A stretch of 61,846 nucleotides of DNA, the filler included, from Globobulimina sp. (lineage: Eukaryota): assembly GCA_003354225.1 (NCBI GenBank). It is 18 parts of 18 records of this genome, joined end to end, with 100 filler letters (N's around TTAATTAATTAA, not from the genome) between each part and the next. Parts side by side here need not be neighbours in the genome. Positions count along the whole stretch, not along the records: positions 13,776 to 17,117 come from PIVH01003022.1; 17 more parts are not named here. One strand, 5' to 3'. Below the pieces are notes generated by a model. It worked only from the letters and a program-made list of their open reading frames with translations. It was not told the origin of the DNA and did not search any database. Below are positions 3,218-61,846 of this stretch, one piece after another. The position numbers and the translations under genes were made by a program. How positions within the stretch are numbered: position 1 is the first letter of the stretch; the number at the start of each line of letters is the position of its first letter.

Positions 3218-3538
3218 ATGTTCTCAAAACTCTAATTTGGCTAAGGAATGTTAAACAACTACACCGAGATAATGACAGGTTTTATACCTTTGTATACTTT
3301 ATGTCTACCAATAGTTCTTAAAATCAGTTCGGGTGTTTTTTTAANNNNNNNNNNNNNNNNNNNNNNNNNNNNNNNNNNNNNNNNNNNNTTAATTAATTAA
3401 NNNNNNNNNNNNNNNNNNNNNNNNNNNNNNNNNNNNNNNNNNNNGCATAAAAAAAAAGAATCATGAAATAAATAAAATCAATAATAATGAAAAAAAGAAA
3501 GGGAAAGAAGGAGAAAAAAAAGAAGAAAAGGAATAAAT

Positions 3539-5270: not shown

Positions 5271-6888
5271 AATATTATAATAAGTACAATGTTACCGATG
5301 GGATATCATCTCAGCAACTATATGTGCTATTCCTTTTGGGAGAAATAACGCTTCGCTGCCAATTGAAAATATGGTCTGCTTTTGGCAAATTCAATCGAAT
5401 TCAAAGCTGGTAAATCTTCAAAAAACAATGAAGATTTAATAACATTCTGCGGTACCAAACAATGGAATAAAATCAACAATACATATTATTGTATGTAAAG
5501 GAACTCAAATTAATAAACATGTATGCGTTATCATCTAAATATCCAGTGAGTGCAACAATCATTGTCTGTGATATAATCTTATGAATTATGATGTACAGAT
5601 TGTCATGAATATAATTGGATGCATCATATAATAAAATTAATGTCTTTTTCTTCATAAGTAAGACTCCCAACAATAGGGTCCTAAATTCAAATCACAAATT
5701 CAAATTTACAAGCACTAAATGTTTTTTTCGTAATTGCAGATTTTAAAATTCTGCTAAATTAATAGCTAAAAACAACTAAATAAACAGCATAGTTAAGTTT
5801 ATTTTGCTTGCAATTTGTATGCGCGCATATGAATATTGACCTTCAATTTATACATGGCACATAGCATTAATCCGGAATGTGATGTTAAATCAACAATCGA
5901 CAAACACGGTATGCATCGCAAATATCATTACTAACAAACGGATAGATGGCAAATAACTTATCCATCTATAAAACAGTTGCAATCCTCACTGCCATTTGAA
6001 CACTTTGTCCAAATTGAACGTAGTAATATATAGCATCAGGAAGTCGTGTGGAGAATATTGGAATGGATTAAAATAAGAATTAAAAAAAAAAAATCAACAA
6101 CAACAATATAAACAGTAATCACGCATCCATTAAAACCAAATATTCACCATTGATAATCCTAGCAACGAAATTAAAACACATATCTATTATCTCATACAAA
6201 CATCATTAAATTCAAGGATACAACAATTATATAGTGAATTGAAGCGAATTAGATTCAACGCGATATACGTATTCTGTCAAGCATTGCCATTTAAAACATT
6301 AATTTGCGCATTCCAAGAAGAAAAAGTGAATTCATCAGAGACAATTTAATGATTCAAGATCAACGGCTATTAATCTTTCGTCAAACATTCGCCTATTTTT
6401 ATTTATTAGCATTGGTTGTTCTCGCCGACGTAGTATTATCGACGCAGCAGTATATACATACTGTCAAGTTGAATTTTTTTTGAGTTTATAATTCAATTTT
6501 ATCCATATTTTATCGGACCAGAACGAGAGTCACAAAGAGAGACATTTACTGTAAATACATACCACGTAATTGAACAATTCACAACAGACGCAATACAAAC
6601 ACCAGAAATTATTAGTATCATACATACATATTTATTCCCAGAAATAGAGTCTTCGACAATTATATTATATTTTTGAGGCCATCAAATCTGAGACGCAAAC
6701 CCATTTTAATCGTAACAGAAATATCATATTATCAATAGTCAGGAGGTAATAAGGCAAAATAATGAAATCACTCAACAATGTCGCAAATNNNNNNNNNNNN
6801 NNNNNNNNNNNNNNNNNNNNNNNNNNNNNNNNTTAATTAATTAANNNNNNNNNNNNNNNNNNNNNNNNNNNNNNNNNNNNNNNNNNNN

Positions 6889-13775: not shown

Positions 13776-16700
13776 AATGTTGACATGAATGTTGCTGAAA
13801 TTGTGGGCATCCCACACAAGAAAATCAATGAACAGTTGATCAGCGACCTGAAATCAATGATATTCGATGAACATAATGTTTTGACACTATCCATGACTGA
13901 ACATGGTACCATTTGCGTGGATTTCCAATATGACAAAACCGATTCAGACATTCAAGCGTTTCAACAGGAAATCCGCGAATTATTCGAGAGTACCAAATAT
14001 GGCCAAAATGTGCAGTTTTTACGTCCCAATGACCCGTATTTAGTCAAAATGAAATCGAGTGGCTCCAGCGATGAAATCGAAAAGTTACAACTGACGATCG
14101 AGTCTGCCAACCCTTCAAATAATAATATTATGATATTTGTCAACAAAGAACGCATTCGATATAATCCAAAGGAATTACACCATGGCGACCACATTTTATT
14201 CGGTACGCGGCATATATTCCAATTCATAAATCCGTTGGAATCGTCGTCCTTTGCTAATGCCGCTGACGAAGACGAGAAAAAAGAAGCAAATCAACAGGAG
14301 CATATTCAGAAAATATTAGATGAAGAAACCGTAAAACACAAGCACGTGAACAGTATATTTGATATGAAAAATCTTATCGTGAACAGAATGCAAACGAATG
14401 AGTTTAGAATCGGCAATGCAGAGTTAAGTAAACTACGCAATCTTAAATCGAATCAAATCGGCCATATATTTTGGAGGCACTCCATATTTCTGCAATTCCT
14501 TAATTTTGTCTTGCTTAATCACCAATAATTGCTGCTGTTGCATATCTTGTTGACGCTTTACATTATTTTCTTTATTTTGCAGTTCATTTTGAATTTGTAA
14601 CTCTTTCGTTTCCGTCATTTGTTTTTGTAACATTTGTCGATAATCTTTTTTATTTTGCTGCTGGATTTGCTGCAATTTCTCAGTCTCTTTTTGTTGCGCA
14701 TGGAAGGCTGCCACATTCTTCTCAAACTCCACGCGTTCAGTCATGGCCTGCTGTGCTAAACGCACTTCTTTTTCCGACCGTTGCCGTTCCCGAGCTGCGG
14801 CTAACATTTTTTTGGTGGCTTGTTTTTTTAACTCTTTCTCGCGTTGTTGTTGCCGCCATTGTCGCTCTGCATTTTCCTGAGATCTCCGTATCCGAATATC
14901 TTCCAATTTTTTCTCCTGCGCTTGTTTTTGGCCTTGTTTTGCCGAGATTTTATTTTTTTGCGTTTCCTTGGCGGCTTCGATGGCTTCTTGTTCTTTTTGA
15001 TATTGCTGTTCTCGCAAATCTTTATCCAATAAATATTTTGCGATTTTCTCGTCTTCCAACCGCTGTTTCTCTTTTTCTTTGGCTCGCAATTGTGCCAAAT
15101 CAGTATTTGATTTCTTGATCGCTTCCAATAATTTCTTGCCTTCCACATATTTTTTCTGCTGTTTTCGTTGTTCTTTTTGGTCCAAAACTTCCATTCTTTT
15201 CAATAATTCCGCGCCTTCTAACATTTTTTGCTCTTTTTCGATCATTCTTTTTTTTTCATTCTGCTGCAATTGTTGTACAATAATCTGAGCGGCTGCTTTG
15301 GTGCATTGCTGTCGTTTTTTTTCACGCGAATCCATTTTTTGTATCGCATTTATACGATCAATTTCCATCAAATCATCCATTCCCTTTTCCATGACTTTCT
15401 CTTTTTGTTTGATTTGCTGCTTTTCGACCAATTGCCGGTCGCGAATCGCTGCACATTTCGCATATAACACCAACGAATTCATTTGTTTTACGCATTCATA
15501 ATTTTCCAACATTTTATCGTTTGCTTGGTTTAACGTAGCTTGCCGTTGTCGCAATTTTTCTTGTTCCAAATCAGATAACATTGGTTTCGCATTTCTTGCT
15601 TTTTTCTCCAATGCCAACATTTTCCGTTTTCGTGCTTGTGCTTTTTCGTTTCGTGCCCGCAATTTTTCTTGTTTTATTCGGTGTACTTCTGCCGCAGATA
15701 CATACTTTGCATTTTTTCGAATGGATTGCAATTCGTTGGCTGCAATCACCACCGAATCCGCAGTGGGAAATTGCACATCGATTCCTTTGCGGATTTGTTG
15801 TAATATTTTCTCCGAAATAATGGCCGTATCTTTATTTACTCTCATAATATATTATTGTATTTCGTGGTGTTTTTAATAATTATTTGTCTACGTCAAATAT
15901 CATAATATTCAGTATCACCAATATCCAAAAGGAGCTATTAAAGCAAAAACAGGAAAGTGTGTCGCATGACGCGACCGGCGGGGACGCCTCACGTAAATTG
16001 GTGGACGCCTTCATGGAGGACTACCAAGTCATAACTCATAAATGTAACAGCGCCAATCAAATGAGTCTGTCCTTGGACAAAAACGTATTATTTGATGTAG
16101 GCACATTGTCCTATTTCGACAATGTGTTAAATGCAAAGCATGACCGAATTATAGTGACTCGAACCTGTCATTATAGCGACCCTGAATTGCAGCTGCAAAT
16201 GAAAACGAGTGAGTTCGAGTCGTTATTGAAGCAAATGACATATTATCATGAATTGGCGGAGGCGGATGGCGAGAACGTCGCTGCCGAGACGTTGGACGAC
16301 GACCCCTTTGTACCGCAGCACACCGAGACTTTGTTAGGCGAAGCAAAGCTCAAATTATCCGGACGCAAAATGCCCAAAAAAATCACGACATTGCCCATTC
16401 AGACCGCCAGCGGCGATCAGATCGGCACAATGTACGTCGAGTTGACCTTTAAGTTATTGTCGAAGAATGAGACCAATTGCTATGATATGAAGAAAATGGA
16501 AAATAAACAAGTGGCGCTGATCATTGGTTTCGAGAAGATCGAGACTGAGATGGAATTATCGTACGTTACGTTTACGTTTTGTGGCGTGGGAAAGGACATT
16601 GTTGCCATTTCAAATCGGCATGATATGGATATGGATGATGAGAAACGAGATGAGGCACACGATGTAACTAAGTCGTTTGTGCATGAATTCGAGGACAGTT

Positions 16701-16906
16701 ATCAAGTGCCAATGATCCAAATCACGTCGGCTTTTCGTAATTATCTAAGTGCGCCGGGCATAGTGTTCAAAATATGGGCTCCCGTCTTCGATGACGTCGG
16801 CCAAATGCCACCCATTATATCGTATAAGATACGCTCGAAAAAGATCACGTTACGCATACAGTTACCGGATGGGGAGACATCACAGTGCAGCAAAAACTTG
16901 TTATGA
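13776..16906 (+). CDS. Kinesin-3-like (KIF1/KIF13/KIF28 type) FHA and stalk/tail region, partial; predicted intron 14331-15931
   Basis: FHA-type VNKERI..PKELHHGDHILFGTRHIFQFINP; downstream exon has SANQMSLSLDKNVLF and DDDPF...LLGEA as in kinesin-3 stalks. No motor domain in the contig. Confidence 0.7.
14433..15845 (-). CDS. CFAP45: Cilia- and flagella-associated protein 45 (CCDC19, TPH-domain coiled coil)
   Basis: VKQMNSLVLYAKCAAIRDRQLVEK and C-terminal KIKELQKYGVPPKY; intact intronless 470-aa ORF. Confidence 0.88.
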   Translation of the reverse strand: MRVNKDTAIISEKILQQIRKGIDVQFPTADSVVIAANELQSIRKNAKYVSAAEVHRIKQEKLRARNEKAQARKRKMLALEKKARNAKPMLSDLEQEKLRQRQATLNQANDKMLENYECVKQMNSLVLYAKCAAIRDRQLVEKQQIKQKEKVMEKGMDDLMEIDRINAIQKMDSREKKRQQCTKAAAQIIVQQLQQNEKKRMIEKEQKMLEGAELLKRMEVLDQKEQRKQQKKYVEGKKLLEAIKKSNTDLAQLRAKEKEKQRLEDEKIAKYLLDKDLREQQYQKEQEAIEAAKETQKNKISAKQGQKQAQEKKLEDIRIRRSQENAERQWRQQQREKELKKQATKKMLAAARERQRSEKEVRLAQQAMTERVEFEKNVAAFHAQQKETEKLQQIQQQNKKDYRQMLQKQMTETKELQIQNELQNKENNVKRQQDMQQQQLLVIKQDKIKELQKYGVPPKYMADLIRFKIA

Positions 16907-17217
16907 GGCTCAAAATTGTGTCCGTTCAGAAATGCCAGCCAGTTTTCAAAATGCCAGCCAAATGTTGTTTTTCTAACTTTAGGTTCACCACTCTGCTATC
17001 TCGTCATTTCTCTTGCTGTCTTTTATGTTGTACAGGTTTAAATAGATACAGATCAATTTATTAAATGGAAATAATTACAAACTGCAATCGATATCATGAA
17101 ATATTAAAGACTTATGGNNNNNNNNNNNNNNNNNNNNNNNNNNNNNNNNNNNNNNNNNNNNTTAATTAATTAANNNNNNNNNNNNNNNNNNNNNNNNNNN
17201 NNNNNNNNNNNNNNNNN

Positions 17218-34325: not shown

Positions 34326-34425
34326 NNNNNNNNNNNNNNNNNNNNNNNNNNNNNNNNNNNNNNNNNNNNTTAATTAATTAANNNNNNNNNNNNNNNNNNN
34401 NNNNNNNNNNNNNNNNNNNNNNNNN

Positions 34426-36289
34426 CGGCACACTGTTTCTAATTGATTTTGGTAGTTTGTGTGCAGGAATTTTGTACCTTTGCTCTATTTCCGTTTTTGT
34501 GAATAAATGTTGAATCATTTTCCATTTATGGTTTTTATCCACGGCCACATCTTGCGGCTCCACCACACAATACAAGGTCTCATGCGTTTGCTTATCCGTA
34601 AAATCAAAATTAAGTACACCAACATCGGCATTCTGCGTCACAAATTTATTTGGTTGCAAAGCTAGTGACTTATTCATAAACCAATATACTCCTTCAATAT
34701 GCTCATTAATTTGGCGCGGCACCATGTTTGTGCTGAAGGTCCATGATATTGAGACGCTTCCTGGGCCCATACAGTCTCCTTCTTCGATGGGGTCCAACGT
34801 GGAAAGCCTCACAGGCATTGGTGTAAAGGAGGATGCGTGCACATTGAGTTTAGTGTCAGACTTCACAGTTTTTTCTTCATCTTCTTCATCTTCATCCTCC
34901 TCCTCGTTTTTCGCATTGTTTTTATCATATTTCTTTTTATTACGATCGTCATTGTGCTTATCATCATCCCCTCCTCCAGTGCCTCCACACGACCCTCCAC
35001 TGCCACTGAATGCACCACCACCAGCCCCTTCGTCGTCATTTTCTGAGTGGTTCTTGCTTTGCCTGTTTTGTTCGGTTCCATGTGTAGGCTTCGCTGACTT
35101 TGCAGAGTTCGATCCACCACTTTTCCCAGATGGCTGACTGATTATTCCATCTATATATAATATTTATAATTACATTCCACATGTTCAATAATGCTGCGCA
35201 GCACATGCTTTAATACCACAATAATTCCTCAACAACTGTACAAATTTTAACCTGTGTCCATTCACTTTCTGTTCAAAGTAACAACAATCAATGTCATGTG
35301 CAATAAAACAGCCAATAACACTCTGTGTATCCAACGCAATATCGTTTGCAGTGTTTTTTAAACCATTCAACAAAACCGGACACATAAACGGGTTGATTCC
35401 ATCCAAAGCACAGCCACTAAAATGCTCGAAAAACATTGATAACTTTGCCATTAAATTATGCGCATATATTTCCGCATGATATTGTCCATGTTCATGGCCA
35501 CAGCCATACGTATAAAACATATCTATTTTGGAAGCTGTGACATGAAACGAAACAGTCAACATTCCGCTGTCTGAGCTGCTGAATCCCAACACTTTTCCTT
35601 TGGTGTTATCTAAACAGAATGCGGTCACTTGTGCACTGCTCAGATGTGCTATGCTATGTTGCTTGGAAGCGGTATATTTATATATAATATCTTTAGTATA
35701 ATCTGTATTCTTTTTTATAATGAAAACATCGCGTTGATATCCATGGTGGTCTTGGAATGTGAGGCCATTCGTGTGCTGTAAGACGACATCGTTGATGTGT
35801 TGCTGTTTGTTGCTGCGTCGAGTCGCATGATCCGAAATGGTGAGGTTATTGACAGATAAATCGCATTGTATTGTCTTTAAGAACCTGTACATTTACACAA
35901 GTAATGTTTTGTATGTACACTTTGTTACACAACGCAAACAATTTAAATGGGGAAGTTATACTCAACGGGGTTATAAATGATTCATTGGATGCATTCTTTC
36001 GGAGTATGGATGCGGGAATGAAGTATGCATCACATTGGTATGTGCATTTATTATGGATTTGGGTGGTTTGTAGTGCTTGCAAAATTTGCTCGATATCGTG
36101 TATGTATTGCGATGGGTTGCCATTTATTAATGGGATTTGGTTTCGAACATTTGAATGAAGACTACATTCAAGTCGATGTTTATTTGAATTGGTATCACAT
36201 ATCTGTGTGTTTCTAATGTGCTGGGAAAGGGAATCTTCATTGAGATAATCATGATTGTCTCCATCAGATAAGATCTGCATCAGTTTCAA
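34426..36289 (-). CDS. Probable multi-exon hypothetical protein with Gly/acidic linker and PAM2-like motif
   Basis: Successive same-strand ORFs separated by intron-like AT stretches; KLNVHASSFTP resembles the PAM2 consensus LNxxAxEFxP. Exon joining not fully resolved. Confidence 0.45.
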
Positions 36290-54968: not shown

Positions 54969-55415
54969 NNNNNNNNNNNNNNNNNNNNNNNNNNNNNNNN
55001 NNNNNNNNNNNNTTAATTAATTAANNNNNNNNNNNNNNNNNNNNNNNNNNNNNNNNNNNNNNNNNNNNATTTGATGCTATTTGGTTGATATCCAACTTTA
55101 GATGTCCATAAATTGCCCTTTGTGTTTATAATCGATAGAGTGTAGAATATTTATACTCAAACATATTAAACATATACCTATGGGAAATGTTTTATTGAAT
55201 AATTTTTGTTATAACTTATATGGAAACTATATAAAATTATGAAATTATACAAAGTTTAAAATTGAAAATGAGCAGAAATTAACAAAATAATTATAATTTT
55301 GCTGAATATAAACTACCTTTTAAAGCAACGGTATCTATACGAAACCATATGAAGGGATGAGCTCTGACCCCAAAGATAGTGTGAAAAACCTTGCTTAATT
55401 TGTTAAGTCTGTTGC

Positions 55416-58407
55416 ATGGCATCTGACAAACAAAACAGCCCTGAACACATAGAAGTTATAGCACCGTTATTGTCCAGCACTGTACCAATGAATGAACCAT
55501 ATGAACTACTCAATGGAAACGATGTTGACAACAACAATAACAACAACAACCAGAACATAGAACAAACCACGCATGTAATCCACAACAAATTAGGCACAAT
55601 CAACGGCTGCTACGTGCCATGTTTGTTGAACATTATGGGTATAATCCTATTCGAGCGTTTAGGATGGGGCATCGGCCAAGTTGGTGTAAGTGGAGTGTTG
55701 TTAAGTAACCAATGCATAAACCTCTGCTCAAAACCAATCGCAAAATCGCAAAATCAACACAAACACAGTGCAATCTTTCTAATCGCCGAATTCCAGGCAA
55801 TAATCACTGTGCTCTCTCTCTCCGCCATTGTCACCAATGGCAATATGCGTGGCGGGGGTTCATATTATATGATATCACGTACATTAGGCCCTGAATTCGG
55901 TGGCTCGGTTGGTTTATTATTTTATGCGGCGTACTGTGTGGGAGTGGCCTTTTACTGTACTGGCTTTGCAGAGGAATTCGTCGAGACTTGGTATCCCGAC
56001 TACAGTGGCTACCGCAGGAAATGGTTCACCATCCTCTATGCCAGCATTGTGTGCGGTGCCTGCTTAGCCATTGCCATGGCGGGAGCCCGCTACTTCACTA
56101 AGATCAATGTCTTGCTATTTTTCTGGCAGTTTTTAGGAATATTCATCGCGTTGTTGGCAGTTTTTTTTCGTGGAACTTTCCAGCTCGGAAATCAAGATGC
56201 GGTTTGCAACGAGGCCACGGGCGAATTGTTTAAACATTATTCCTGGAAATGGCCGCAATTCAGTGAGATGTGGTCCTTTTCGTGCGAAAACTGCAAGAAT
56301 TTCCCAAGTTAGGTCGTATTTGCTGGTTTTCAATGATGTGGCGAGTCCATCTAATTCCGTAAATAGTGGATAACATTTCCAGTCCATATCGGATGTTTTT
56401 AGTGTAAATAAATCACAAAATGCGAAGCATTTTGATCAACAGCAATGTCCATACAAACAGCTACAGCTCATTCTAATGCAACTTTTGTGATTCATTTATC
56501 TAACCAACATAACGTATAACATCACGTCGTCAATACTTATGCATGCACTATACAGCCACTTTCGGCGTACTGTTCCCCGCAGCAACGGGCATAATGGAAG
56601 GAGCCAACCTCAGCGGGGATTTGGCCAATCCGACCTATTCCATCCCAGTGGGCACGCTGTCGGCAGTGGGCACCGCCATATTTTTCTATGTCTTATTGAT
56701 AATTGCCATGGCTGGCTCCTTCAACCAATGCACATTGCGCGAAGATACCACCATAATGCAAGAGTCCGCCTGGGGCGACGTGGGCACATATTTGGTGGTG
56801 GCGGGCGTGATGATATCCGCCTCGTCCTCTGCTTTGGGCTCACTGTTTGGTGGCAGCCGCGTGTTGCAAGCAATCGCGAGGGATAAGTTATTTCCGTACA
56901 CCAGATGGTTTGAGTATGGCTCGTCCAAAGGCGATGAACCTCGCACAGCAGTGCTGTTTACATGGATCATTGCGCAGTCGCTAATATTCATAGGTTCCAT
57001 CAATGCCATCGCGCCCATTTCAACCTCGTTCTTTTGCTTATCATATTGCACGGTGAATTTCAGCTGCTTTCTATTGGAAATCTCGGGCACGCCCAATTTT
57101 CGACCGTCCTTCACTTATTATACGTGGCATACAGCTTTGTTGGGCACTGTGTCCAATTTGGCGGTGATGTTTTTCGTGGATTATAGGTTTGGTTTCGCGG
57201 CGTTGATCTGTGAGATTGCAGTCTTTGTGTATTTGGCGTACAGAGCTCCGCAGAATGTATGGGGCGATGTGACGCAATCGATAATATTCCACCAAGTGCG
57301 CAAATATTTGTTGCGTTTGGATTCGCGCAAAGCGCATAGCAAGACCTGGAGACCGAGCATATTGTTGTTGGCAGATTGCGAGTTGGAACATATTGCTTTG
57401 ATTGACTTTTGTAACAATTTGAAAAAAGGCGGTTTGTATATCATTGGCAGTACAATTCTCGGCGATTTTAATGACAATGTGTTGAGGTTGAAGAAGATCA
57501 AAGATGATTGGCTCGAGTTTGTGGACAGGAACTCATTGAAAGCGTTCCCGCAAATTGCTGTTTCCAATGCGTTGCGCAGTGGTTATGAAAATTTGATATT
57601 GTTGTCGGGTTTAGGTGCGATGGAGCCAAATACCATTGTTTTGCCAATGCTGCGCTTGCGAAGACACAAAGAGGAGCATCACAAAGCCGCAGAAGAGGAG
57701 AAACACGAAAAAAGCGACTCGTTTGATATGTCGATACCGGAAATGGACCGTTCCGGACCCTTTTTAGAAGCATTTAAAAACTTAGTAATGTATGTTTGTT
57801 ATATTCCTATTTTTTAATAATATTTGTGTGATGTAACAATTTTAAGGTCAAGTCCGGCTGAAATGGACCCGGTGGAATACGTGAAACTGTGTGGCAACAT
57901 CTTGAAATTCAACAGAAACATTGTGATGACCGCAAATATGTATGCCTTGGATTTCGAGCTGGTTGTCTCGCAAAGCATTGCCCAGGTCATTGAGGAAAAA
58001 AACAAAAAGAGAAACCCGGCATCGATTAATATCGTAAACAAAGGCAGTTTGCAAGTGAATGCTTCCGCAGTCGACGATGCGTTGGAAAGCAATGCGAATG
58101 ACTCCAATTCCCGGTCGTCAGTGATTGCGAGAGCGCACGCGTCCACATCGACCATTACCTCTGTCAGTAAGTTGAATTCGCGATATTGGACCTTTGCGTC
58201 GCAGAGTGCCGCTGGTCTGAGGAACCAGTGGGTGGACATCTGGCTGTTTGCGGACGATTATACGTTTAATGTGGTGGACAGTGTCAGTATGAAAGATGAA
58301 GGCTTTCCAATGCTGATCATGCAATTGGCGCATATATTGCTGCAGAATAAGGTGTGGGACAAAGCAGCGGGTTTGAGGGTGTTTTTGTTGGTGAATAGCA
58401 AATGGAG
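55416..58407 (+). CDS. Cation-chloride cotransporter (SLC12, SLC12A9-like), 3'-truncated; introns 55700-55768, 56308-56555, 57790-57846
   Basis: KLGTINGCYVPCLLNIMG, GGGSYYMISRTLGPEFGGSVG, FPAATGIMEGANLSGDL, PNFRPSF and HQVRKYLL. Confidence 0.95.
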
Positions 58408-59773: not shown

Positions 59774-61756
59774 TCATCTGTCCGTATTTAACATTGGCAT
59801 GCCACCATCTGTCATTCCACTATATATCTGAGAAATAAATGGTATCCATATAGTTTCCAGCTCCTTTCTCTTAGAATCAAATTCTTCCATTCCAGCATTT
59901 GGATTTGCATCAACCCAATCTATGCTATCTTTCACTGCATCAAACATTCTCCGACACTCTTTATCATTGATTGCATTCCTAATTCGTTCCTCATTCATTG
60001 AGTTTCGCATTTTATAAACAAAATTTTCCAATTCATTTTTAGCAGACATTTTCCTCCTTTGAACTGCTTCTTTTTTCTCCCAAATCATAACCTCATCAAC
60101 CATTTCTTGAATTTGTTTCTCAGTCAAGCCAACAGTTTTAGATTCAAGTTTTATTGCAGAAATGCCAAAATCTGACAATATTTTACGAAGTGCACCCATC
60201 TCAATAATAATACATTTAATACTTTCCGGTATGTACAGCAAAGATTTCATCTTTCGAACATACCCATCCATAACCATCGAACTTAAAATAGCATCACAAT
60301 TTGCAGAAATAGATAACATTCCACTGTCATCAATACAAAACACAACATCCACCACAGAACCTTTAGGTGCTGCAGGTATCTCACTCAGTCGATATTCACC
60401 AAACAGATGTTCATCATTATTTGTCTGGTCCTCACTTGCAAAAACCTTAAAGGGAGCAAAAAAACTTTGATTATCTCTCATCGTTTTAAATGGTTTGATC
60501 ACAGTACAAGGAATGTGCATTCTGCGGCTGATAACCTCTTGTGTTGCTACATCAGCAGTCATCATAGAAACAGGAGTCACTGTAATGTCATTTATGGTAT
60601 GTTTATGCGTATGTCGTAGTGCTGCACCTCGTGCCACACCTTCATCCACATTAATGCTCCGATTTATATCTGTGATTTTCGTGCCAACAAAATATCTCCC
60701 AACTAGCTGTTGAAAAAATGCGGCTCTGCACAATCCACCAACCACTAAAACATCATCAATCTCAGATTTCAATATTCCTGCTTCATCCAATGCTGTTTGA
60801 ATGTAATTAACACAGATTTCAAATGTTTCCCCACATAATGCCTCATATTTGGCCTTGCTCAGAAACCAACAAACATCGATATTGTTGTATAAAGAATCAA
60901 TTTCCACACAAGCTCTGACAGTATGAGACAATGTGCGTTTTACTCGCTCGCAGGCGGTCTTTAATCGTCTCATTGCTCTGTCGGAAACTCTTAAATCCAT
61001 TTTGTGTTTTCTTTGGAATGTATCGGCAAAATAATTCACCAAAATAGTCTCAATATCATCCGATCCCAGATCTGTGTTACCTGCAGTCGCAATTGCTGTG
61101 ATGGCAGTTTTGTCGATTTGAATTACAGAAACATTGCACATTCCGGCACCGAAATCTATGACAACTACAATGCCGACAAAGCTATAGTTTGTATCATGTG
61201 CATAGGTCATTGCAACAGCTGTTGTTGAATTGATAAGTTGGACTGCAGTCAATCCTGATATTTGTGCTGCGTCCATAATGGATTGACGTTGTGAGTAATT
61301 GAAATTGGGTGGAACTGCAATGACACAAAGCAGTGGTTTATGACCAACATATTGATAAGCCATAGTTTGTAGATATGATAGTATCATCGCTGCGATTTGT
61401 TCCGGATAAAATGTTTTTATTTCTTGGTTTATTGTAAGTTGATATAATGGAGTATTTTGTGGTGATTTGATTATATTAATTGGCACTGATTTAATGTGTT
61501 TTTGCACGGCTGGATCGCTATATTTTCTACCCATTATTCTTTTGGTGTTAAATGGTGTATTTTTTGCATTTCGTGAGGACATTGCTTTCGCGGCAGAGCC
61601 AACCAATCGCTCATTATCACAAAACGAAACGAATGATGGTGTTGTCCTTTCTCCCATGTCGTTTGCTATGATTTCAACAAATTGATCAATTACACGTACA
61701 CTTCCAACGCAACAATATGCGGTCCCGAAATCGATTGCAAAAGATCTAGACGACAT
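59774..61756 (-). CDS. Highly divergent cytosolic-type Hsp70
   Basis: IDFGT, IIANDMGERTTPS, RRLKTACERVKRTLS and AKNELENF; catalytic motifs altered; no EEVD. Confidence 0.92.
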   Translation of the reverse strand: MSSRSFAIDFGTAYCCVGSVRVIDQFVEIIANDMGERTTPSFVSFCDNERLVGSAAKAMSSRNAKNTPFNTKRIMGRKYSDPAVQKHIKSVPINIIKSPQNTPLYQLTINQEIKTFYPEQIAAMILSYLQTMAYQYVGHKPLLCVIAVPPNFNYSQRQSIMDAAQISGLTAVQLINSTTAVAMTYAHDTNYSFVGIVVVIDFGAGMCNVSVIQIDKTAITAIATAGNTDLGSDDIETILVNYFADTFQRKHKMDLRVSDRAMRRLKTACERVKRTLSHTVRACVEIDSLYNNIDVCWFLSKAKYEALCGETFEICVNYIQTALDEAGILKSEIDDVLVVGGLCRAAFFQQLVGRYFVGTKITDINRSINVDEGVARGAALRHTHKHTINDITVTPVSMMTADVATQEVISRRMHIPCTVIKPFKTMRDNQSFFAPFKVFASEDQTNNDEHLFGEYRLSEIPAAPKGSVVDVVFCIDDSGMLSISANCDAILSSMVMDGYVRKMKSLLYIPESIKCIIIEMGALRKILSDFGISAIKLESKTVGLTEKQIQEMVDEVMIWEKKEAVQRRKMSAKNELENFVYKMRNSMNEERIRNAINDKECRRMFDAVKDSIDWVDANPNAGMEEFDSKRKELETIWIPFISQIYSGMTDGGMPMLNTDR

Positions 61757-61846
61757 TGCAATTTTACTTTCAAAATCTCAGTGACCTCACAAAATGGCAC
61801 GAATCCTTGCACAAATGTTATTTATGAAGATCGAGAATTTTAAATC

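Follow-up and report, generated by a model that had tools for sequence, protein, structure and literature searches.

A CFAP45 gene very probably nested antisense in a spliced intron of a kinesin-3-like gene of Globobulimina sp.

Does an open reading frame (ORF) that lies antisense between two pieces of kinesin coding sequence represent a gene housed inside the intron of another gene, and where does that intron begin and end? The question is raised by one contig in a 61,846-base stretch of DNA from Globobulimina sp. (assembly GCA_003354225.1), referred to here as the window, in which a minus-strand ORF for the axonemal protein CFAP45 is flanked on both sides by plus-strand coding sequence of a kinesin-3-like gene. 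The whole locus lies inside 13776..17117, so the proposed nest is confined to a single contig. We conclude that this is very probably a genuine pair of host and nested genes, with CFAP45 antisense in a spliced intron of the kinesin-3-like gene, and with probable consequences for both genes that we set out below.

We show that the two plus-strand ORFs belong to one spliced gene, as an original prediction made from the DNA sequence had proposed. When longer relatives of the downstream ORF were sought, two proteins emerged among 2171 candidates, both from the 'eukprot' source: P0001 (873 residues, 81% identical) and P0002 (1296 residues, 72% identical). Both run continuously across the locus. By tblastn, residues 153 to about 369 of P0001 align to 13776..14422 and residues about 370 to 693 to 15913..16879, and residues 599 to about 800 and 802-1115 of P0002 align to the upstream and downstream exons, respectively; between the two exon pieces no residue of either relative is missing. 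The boundary is formed by a donor GA/GTTAAGT (14422/14423) and an acceptor TTCAG/T (15912/15913), whose joining creates an Asp codon from GA and T and yields the motif RIGNA-D-ITNIQ, which reads RIGNV-D-ITNIQ or RIGNV-D-INNIQ in the relatives. Additionally, eight public sequencing runs hold part of the stretch, none of them on record as RNA, and four (X1, X5, X6 and X8) were compared through their assembled contigs, which are strand-less and whose depths are a poor measure. The sole joint in these four runs is 14422->15913, which skips 1490 nt with GT..AG ends and occurs in one contig each of X5, X6 and X8, from three studies, and in 0 contigs of X1. The true intron is therefore 14423..15912, and it is spliced out of the kinesin pre-mRNA.

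These boundaries replace those of the original prediction, which had placed a phase-0 donor at 14331 and acceptor at 15931 around a 1.6-kb intron. A GT and an AG (15930-15931) are present at those positions and give an in-frame join, but no contig of the four runs carries that joint, and both relatives align continuously through 14331..14422 and 15913..15931. Splicing there would remove about 37 codons that are conserved in P0001 and P0002, 31 of them from 14331 to 14422 and six before the proposed acceptor, and we regard use of these sites, even in an alternative isoform, as extremely improbable. The actual intron is in phase 2, with the Asp codon split GA/T, and measures 1490 nt rather than 1601. 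The junction peptide ILDEET-ELLKQK proposed for the phase-0 joint is likewise unsupported; the relatives read RIGN(V/A)-D-I(T/N)NIQ over the true one, and the intron sequence outside CFAP45 amounts to 77 nt instead of the roughly 190 nt first given. What stands is the arrangement itself: the CFAP45 coding sequence, 14433..15845, is wholly within the kinesin intron.

The joined contig of X5 is 3185 nt long, has one differing letter on each side of the joint, and reaches 1757 nt 5' of 13776, approximately the length needed for the 598 residues that precede the matched part of P0002. Its depth is 76, as against 0-2.8 over the intron, and across X5 and X6 the exons have depths of 76-270 as against 0-4 on intron contigs. 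Because of its length, its near-identity to the window and the depth contrast with the intron, the contig behaves as mRNA, and we take it for a transcript from the same strain, the kind of run being judged from depth and contig structure. The joint is shared by X6 and X8, whose sequence there is 3-9% different from the window. Of the differences listed for exon 1, 29 of 36 are at third codon positions, which shows that purifying selection acts on the kinesin frame.

CFAP45 belongs to the inner proteins of axonemal doublet microtubules. Its loss has reportedly been linked to a motile ciliopathy (PMC7606486). The minus-strand ORF of the window has the coordinates originally assigned to it, with an ATG at 15845-15843, a TAG at 14435-14433 and 470 codons, and a stop codon lies two codons 5' of the ATG. 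Its match to the Pfam TPH family (PF13868) scores 176.5 bits against a cut-off of 27 (E value 7.1e-52) and covers profile positions 2-351 of 352. Each of its ten PDB sequence matches at E <= 0.001 bears the name CFAP45 or FAP45, and the best of them, 8g2z (E 2.4e-42), aligns query residues 2-469 with residues 24-492 of a 494-residue chain. In a search of 5.8 billion proteins, 32 of 7999 scored candidates passed, the five nearest being 467-474 residues long with 56-59% identity over 99-100% coverage. An alignment with seven relatives (59-31% identity) stays colinear over the full length and has 71 invariant columns over its eight sequences. The frame contains no frameshift or internal stop, and with stop codons making up 0.054 of codons in the window over six frames, a 470-codon open frame has a chance probability of about 4e-12. 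Because homology, colinearity and this improbable open frame coincide, the ORF is a complete, intronless CFAP45 gene, as had been predicted, and is under selection. It shares the TPH coiled-coil domain, a similar length and an end-to-end alignment with the named CFAP45 proteins of Tetrahymena, Chlamydomonas and mammals (8g2z, 6u42, 7rro and others), but identity to these is modest, at 27-34%, and the Globobulimina protein is a putative axonemal component. A retrogene origin was considered, the gene being intronless; no poly(A) remnant was found 3' of the CFAP45 stop, and the evidence points neither way. The features of the locus are collected in Table 1.

Table 1. Features of the contig that carries the CFAP45/kinesin nest (positions in the window).
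Feature	Position	Strand	Basis
Kinesin-3-like gene, upstream exon, truncated at contig start	13776..14422	+	tblastn of P0001 and P0002; weak FHA match
Kinesin intron, 1490 nt, GTTAAGT...TTCAG, phase 2	14423..15912	+	contig joint in three runs; homologs continuous
Spacer, 10 nt, from kinesin donor to CFAP45 stop	14423..14432		sequence
CFAP45, complete and intronless by homology, 470 codons plus TAG	14433..15845	-	Pfam TPH, PDB matches, colinear relatives
AT-rich spacer, 67 nt, on the CFAP45 ATG side	15846..15912		sequence; roles inferred
Kinesin-3-like gene, downstream exon	15913..16880	+	tblastn; predicted fold
Contig end left by transcript contigs	16881..17117		divergence of X5, X6 and X8; X1 depth

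The fit between guest and intron is tight. The CFAP45 ORF takes up 1413 of the 1490 nt of the intron (95%), and the kinesin donor consensus sits opposite the first bases of the CFAP45 3' untranslated region (UTR). On the plus strand, the 67-nt spacer at the other end would have to hold the branch point and 3' splice site of the kinesin; on the minus strand, the 5' UTR and core promoter of CFAP45 would have no intronic space other than these same 67 nt. With 10 nt past the stop and 67 nt before the ATG, the ends of the CFAP45 transcript should therefore overlap the kinesin exons antisense. Kinesin exon 1 would then contain, in antisense, the CFAP45 3' UTR and poly(A) site, while the promoter of CFAP45, possibly with the 5' UTR, would extend over exon 2.

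Other explanations of the same data have to be weighed. If CFAP45 were a silent passenger, either a recent insertion or a copy being lost, the contigs over the intron would simply be unspliced kinesin pre-mRNA. The low depth of the strand-less intron contigs in X5 and X6 is in keeping with this, and so is the absence of any 'eukprot' CFAP45 among the 32 matches, the best being 59% identical, even though the kinesins of both relatives come from that source. An X5 contig of 151 nt on the body of CFAP45 (15171-15321), identical to the window, is compatible with low-level CFAP45 RNA or, equally, with unspliced kinesin pre-mRNA. A decaying copy, however, would not be expected to keep 470 codons intact, with no frameshift or internal stop, nor to retain full colinearity and the 71 invariant columns, and we consider a silent passenger quite unlikely.

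The order of the parts could also be an artefact, with a chimeric contig placing CFAP45 where it does not belong. The assembly is very fragmented, in contigs of 3.3 kb, the depth of X1 is only about 2-6, and the 3' end of this very contig, 16881-17117, is not followed by transcript contigs. On the other hand, the separately built X1 contigs at 14022-15748 and 15780-16000 bridge the boundaries between donor and CFAP45 and between CFAP45 and acceptor with 0 differences, so that a second assembler arrived at the same order of exon 1, donor, CFAP45, acceptor and exon 2; X1 is possibly the window's own source, and hence this is not independent support for the genomic order. Moreover, the piece that the joined contigs skip has GT and AG precisely at its ends when read in the kinesin orientation, unlike a random mis-join, which makes a chimera very unlikely. 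We give similarly little credence to the idea that the joined form is itself DNA, such as an intron-less retrocopy or an allele of the kinesin. The runs that bear the joint are not on record as RNA, as such a form would allow, but single-copy DNA would give equal depth on exons and intron, contrary to what X5 shows, and the GT..AG ends, together with the match to transcript-derived proteins of two relatives, fit splicing.

Several observations limit the case for a genuine nested pair. The runs that contain the joint are labelled '?' or 'RNA? (a guess)', and their reading as RNA comes from depth and contig structure. The listed X1 contigs leave 15749-15779 uncovered. Contigs on CFAP45 are short, of low depth and strand-less, and are compatible with unspliced host pre-mRNA. 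Within 300 nt of its stop, the CFAP45 strand has a single AATAAA, 233 nt downstream and in exon 1. Metagenome scans for related loci, intended for a synteny comparison, matched 32 stretches with kinesin exon 2 and 276 with CFAP45, none of which tblastn confirmed.

What kind of kinesin is the host? The motor would lie 5' of the start of the window contig, and no further part of the gene turned up elsewhere in the window by tblastn; the motor of P0002 thus has to stand in for it. That motor matches PF00225 with an E value of 9.5e-111, and the best PDB matches of P0002 are KIF13B (3.4e-96), KIF1A (4e-93) and KIF14 (3e-87), with kinesin-2 at about 6e-72 or weaker. These matches, together with the fold of exon 2 described below, support the assignment of the host as kinesin-3-like. 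The upstream exon appears to encode the C-terminal end of an FHA domain, along with an acidic linker and a conserved helix. It had been called an FHA exon, and a weak match supports this for the C-terminal end of a kinesin-3-type FHA: the match covers the last 24-35 residues only, scores 19.6 bits in Pfam, below the cut-off of 20.7, and has an E value of 0.0043 against the FHA domain of KIF13B (3fm8) and of 0.24 against that of KIF1B. P0002 also has a weak FHA end, as well as a ubiquitin-like domain (PF00240, 4.5e-08).

Sequence searches say little about exon 2, which matches no Pfam family at E <= 0.1 and whose best of six PDB matches, at E 1.2, is at chance level. The tail that it encodes has only 12 matches among 1.84 billion representative proteins, of which nine were scanned for domains, the short P0037, P0039 and P0042 being left out; a ubiquitin-like domain follows just after the matched tail in three of the nine, and a weak FHA end just precedes it in one. 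In the ESM Atlas, whose hits serve as leads only, the nearest clusters contain PF12423 (KIF1B) in 27-29% of members, with a score of 0.90. Structure prediction was more telling. A three-sequence alignment gave an unusable model with a predicted local distance difference test (pLDDT) score of 33.1 and was replaced by a 15-sequence alignment, from which AlphaFold produced a model with a pLDDT of 74.4 and a predicted template modelling score of 0.69. Searched against the PDB with Foldseek, this model has two matches at E <= 0.001, both of them chains of 7wrg, the full-length kinesin-3 KLP-6 (E 1.5e-10, template modelling score 0.50 on the query, 284 columns). In VIA, model residues 30-294 align with residues 590-841 of 7wrg_A (Z 13.4, root-mean-square deviation 4.9, 235 aligned), and model residues 27-137 with the MBS domain of KIF13B, 5b64_B (Z 9.7, root-mean-square deviation 3.0, 107 aligned); the second domain reaches a Z of only about 5 against both MATH and C2 sandwiches. 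The downstream exon is thus predicted to encode the last part of CC2, followed by an MBS domain and a beta-sandwich resembling MATH, and its earlier description as a kinesin-3 stalk exon is right at the level of the fold, that of the MBS-MATH tail of KLP-6.

The vertebrate counterpart of KLP-6 is KIF28. A study of the Caenorhabditis elegans protein, which makes no mention of KIF28, gives its order as motor, neck, CC1, FHA, CC2, MBS and MATH, assigning residues near 597-651 to MBS and those near 838-839 to MATH (PMC9314371). The order FHA, CC2, MBS, MATH appears to be common to KLP-6 (7wrg) and the window kinesin, in which the intron falls between FHA/CC2 and MBS. Sequence identity, however, is only 14-15%, and exon 2 lacks a Pfam family. 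Also unlike KLP-6, relatives of the window protein have their MATH-like domain followed by a ubiquitin-like domain and a coiled coil. We observed this PF00240 domain and C-terminal coiled coil in P0001, P0002, P0035, P0038 and P0041, and from these sequences the family of kinesin-3-like proteins with a ubiquitin-like domain would appear to have an unusual, lineage-restricted architecture. A further observation concerns the FHA region. The alignment of KLP-6 (7wrg) with P0002 runs to residue 504 of P0002 (chain residue 503), and KLP-6 512-569 aligns weakly (E 0.76) to residues 112-170 of exon 1, a position some 200 residues farther along P0002. Between the parts that match KLP-6 lies a weak EF-hand motif (P0002 524-546, E 0.0031). 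The FHA fold of this kinesin family is possibly interrupted by a large insertion.

Taking the host and nested pair as real, the following can be proposed. The kinesin-3-like pre-mRNA, transcribed on the plus strand, carries the 1490-nt phase-2 intron, which is spliced out, and CFAP45 would be transcribed from its own promoter on the opposite strand. That CFAP45 is perhaps expressed only in a flagellated stage, as the original prediction suggested, is a conjecture. The two transcription units would collide and their RNAs would be partly complementary, and strong expression of one gene would probably damp the other. The long intron itself probably persists through holding a gene under selection. 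It is tempting to go further and see in the nest a functional switch, in which collision or double-stranded RNA makes transcription of the kinesin-3 motor and of CFAP45 mutually exclusive, ties the flagellated or non-flagellated state to one locus, and has the guest keep or even create the intron, in the way suggested for introns of Giardia (PMC6545626). We think this unlikely; if true, it would couple motor expression to flagellar assembly.

Nested genes of animals usually lie in long introns with spare room. They resemble the present nest in that a complete gene occupies the intron of an unrelated host, on the opposite strand and presumably with its own promoter; in contrast, the guest here fills nearly the whole intron, its untranslated ends cannot fit, and the host genome is apparently short-introned. 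Reported numbers of intronic protein-coding genes are almost 800 for Drosophila and 158 for human, and most of these genes are said to be expressed in a pattern of their own from a separate promoter (PMC3325483); they make up about 6% of Drosophila genes, with 2mit lying on the opposite strand in an intron of timeless2 (PMC3786989), and they have been discussed in protists too (PMC12584245). In Giardia lamblia, some introns are proposed to have been retained on account of a gene that overlaps them in antisense (PMC6545626). The Giardia sense-antisense pairs likewise come from a protist and likewise have an intron coinciding with an opposite-strand gene. Differences are that Giardia has few, short introns and that the antisense partners there were verified by strand-specific reverse transcription PCR (PMC6545626), whereas the antisense transcript of the present pair is a prediction. 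Also unlike the Giardia pairs, the whole antisense ORF of the window nest sits inside the intron. A full-text literature search on CFAP45 and nested genes, a narrow basis, found no report of a CFAP45/kinesin nest. The nest is a new example of a long-known, textbook arrangement and opens no new question; its unusual aspects are quantitative, namely the 95% intron fill and the forced overlap with host exons at both ends.

At its 3' end, the contig departs from the transcripts. The contigs of X5, X6 and X8 part from the window at 16880 and run on into different sequence, which in a by-eye translation keeps the kinesin frame (ET-LDLLCKTGNK, compared with ET-LDLVCKTGNT in P0002); the window has no GT at the departure point. 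X1 depth rises to as much as 645 at 16912-17023, from about 2-6 before 16800, and many contigs with differing flanks start at 16881-16893. No other copy of 16881..17117 was found within the window. This segment is either a high-copy repeat, inserted in one allele, or a chimeric contig end. The relatives continue past this point with the ubiquitin-like domain, and the kinesin does not truly end at the TGA of 16904-16906.

Regarding the material itself, the window consists of 18 contigs of 3339-3344 bp each, ordered by length and separated by linkers of 100 nt, made of 44 N, TTAATTAATTAA and a further 44 N, with a stop in six frames. Features that span the linkers (3345-3444, 6789-6888 and others) are artefacts of concatenation. 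The GC content is 35%, and long ORFs are open with the standard genetic code across the window. A variant code was considered since the best PDB match of CFAP45 is from Tetrahymena, and was rejected: the standard-code ORFs are long and open, and the CFAP45 stop is TAG. X8 shares the organism label of X1, yet is about 9% divergent from the window (32 of 342 letters in one comparison), mostly at third codon positions, and the one label therefore seems to cover either a paralog, a cryptic species or a strain that has diverged. Ordinary eukaryotic genes lie elsewhere in the window, including those for an aldolase, a Utp13-like WD40 protein, an RTEL1-like helicase and an SLC12-type transporter. In the last of these (55407..57817) the non-coding gap is at most about 275 nt by Pfam coordinates, which bears on the 39-248 nt that the original prediction had given for other introns. 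On the minus strand at 59777..61777, an HSP70-family ORF of 667 residues is 45% identical to its best match and 34-38% identical to ordinary cytosolic HSP70s, and is a strongly divergent HSP70 paralog. At 34378..35163, two long ORFs overlap on opposite strands, with 261 residues on the minus strand and 207 on the plus strand (34514..35137); the 261-residue ORF has no Pfam match at E <= 1e-5.

The nest at this locus also has practical meaning for how such genes are read. If only short introns are allowed, a gene finder would break the kinesin into two genes, and picking an in-frame GT and AG by eye, as in the original prediction, would lose 37 conserved codons. For the biology of the organism, a nest this tight offers a clean natural case in which to ask whether transcription of host and guest interferes when an overlap of their ends is forced by the lack of room, and it is equally suited to asking whether the content of the opposite strand keeps an intron long.

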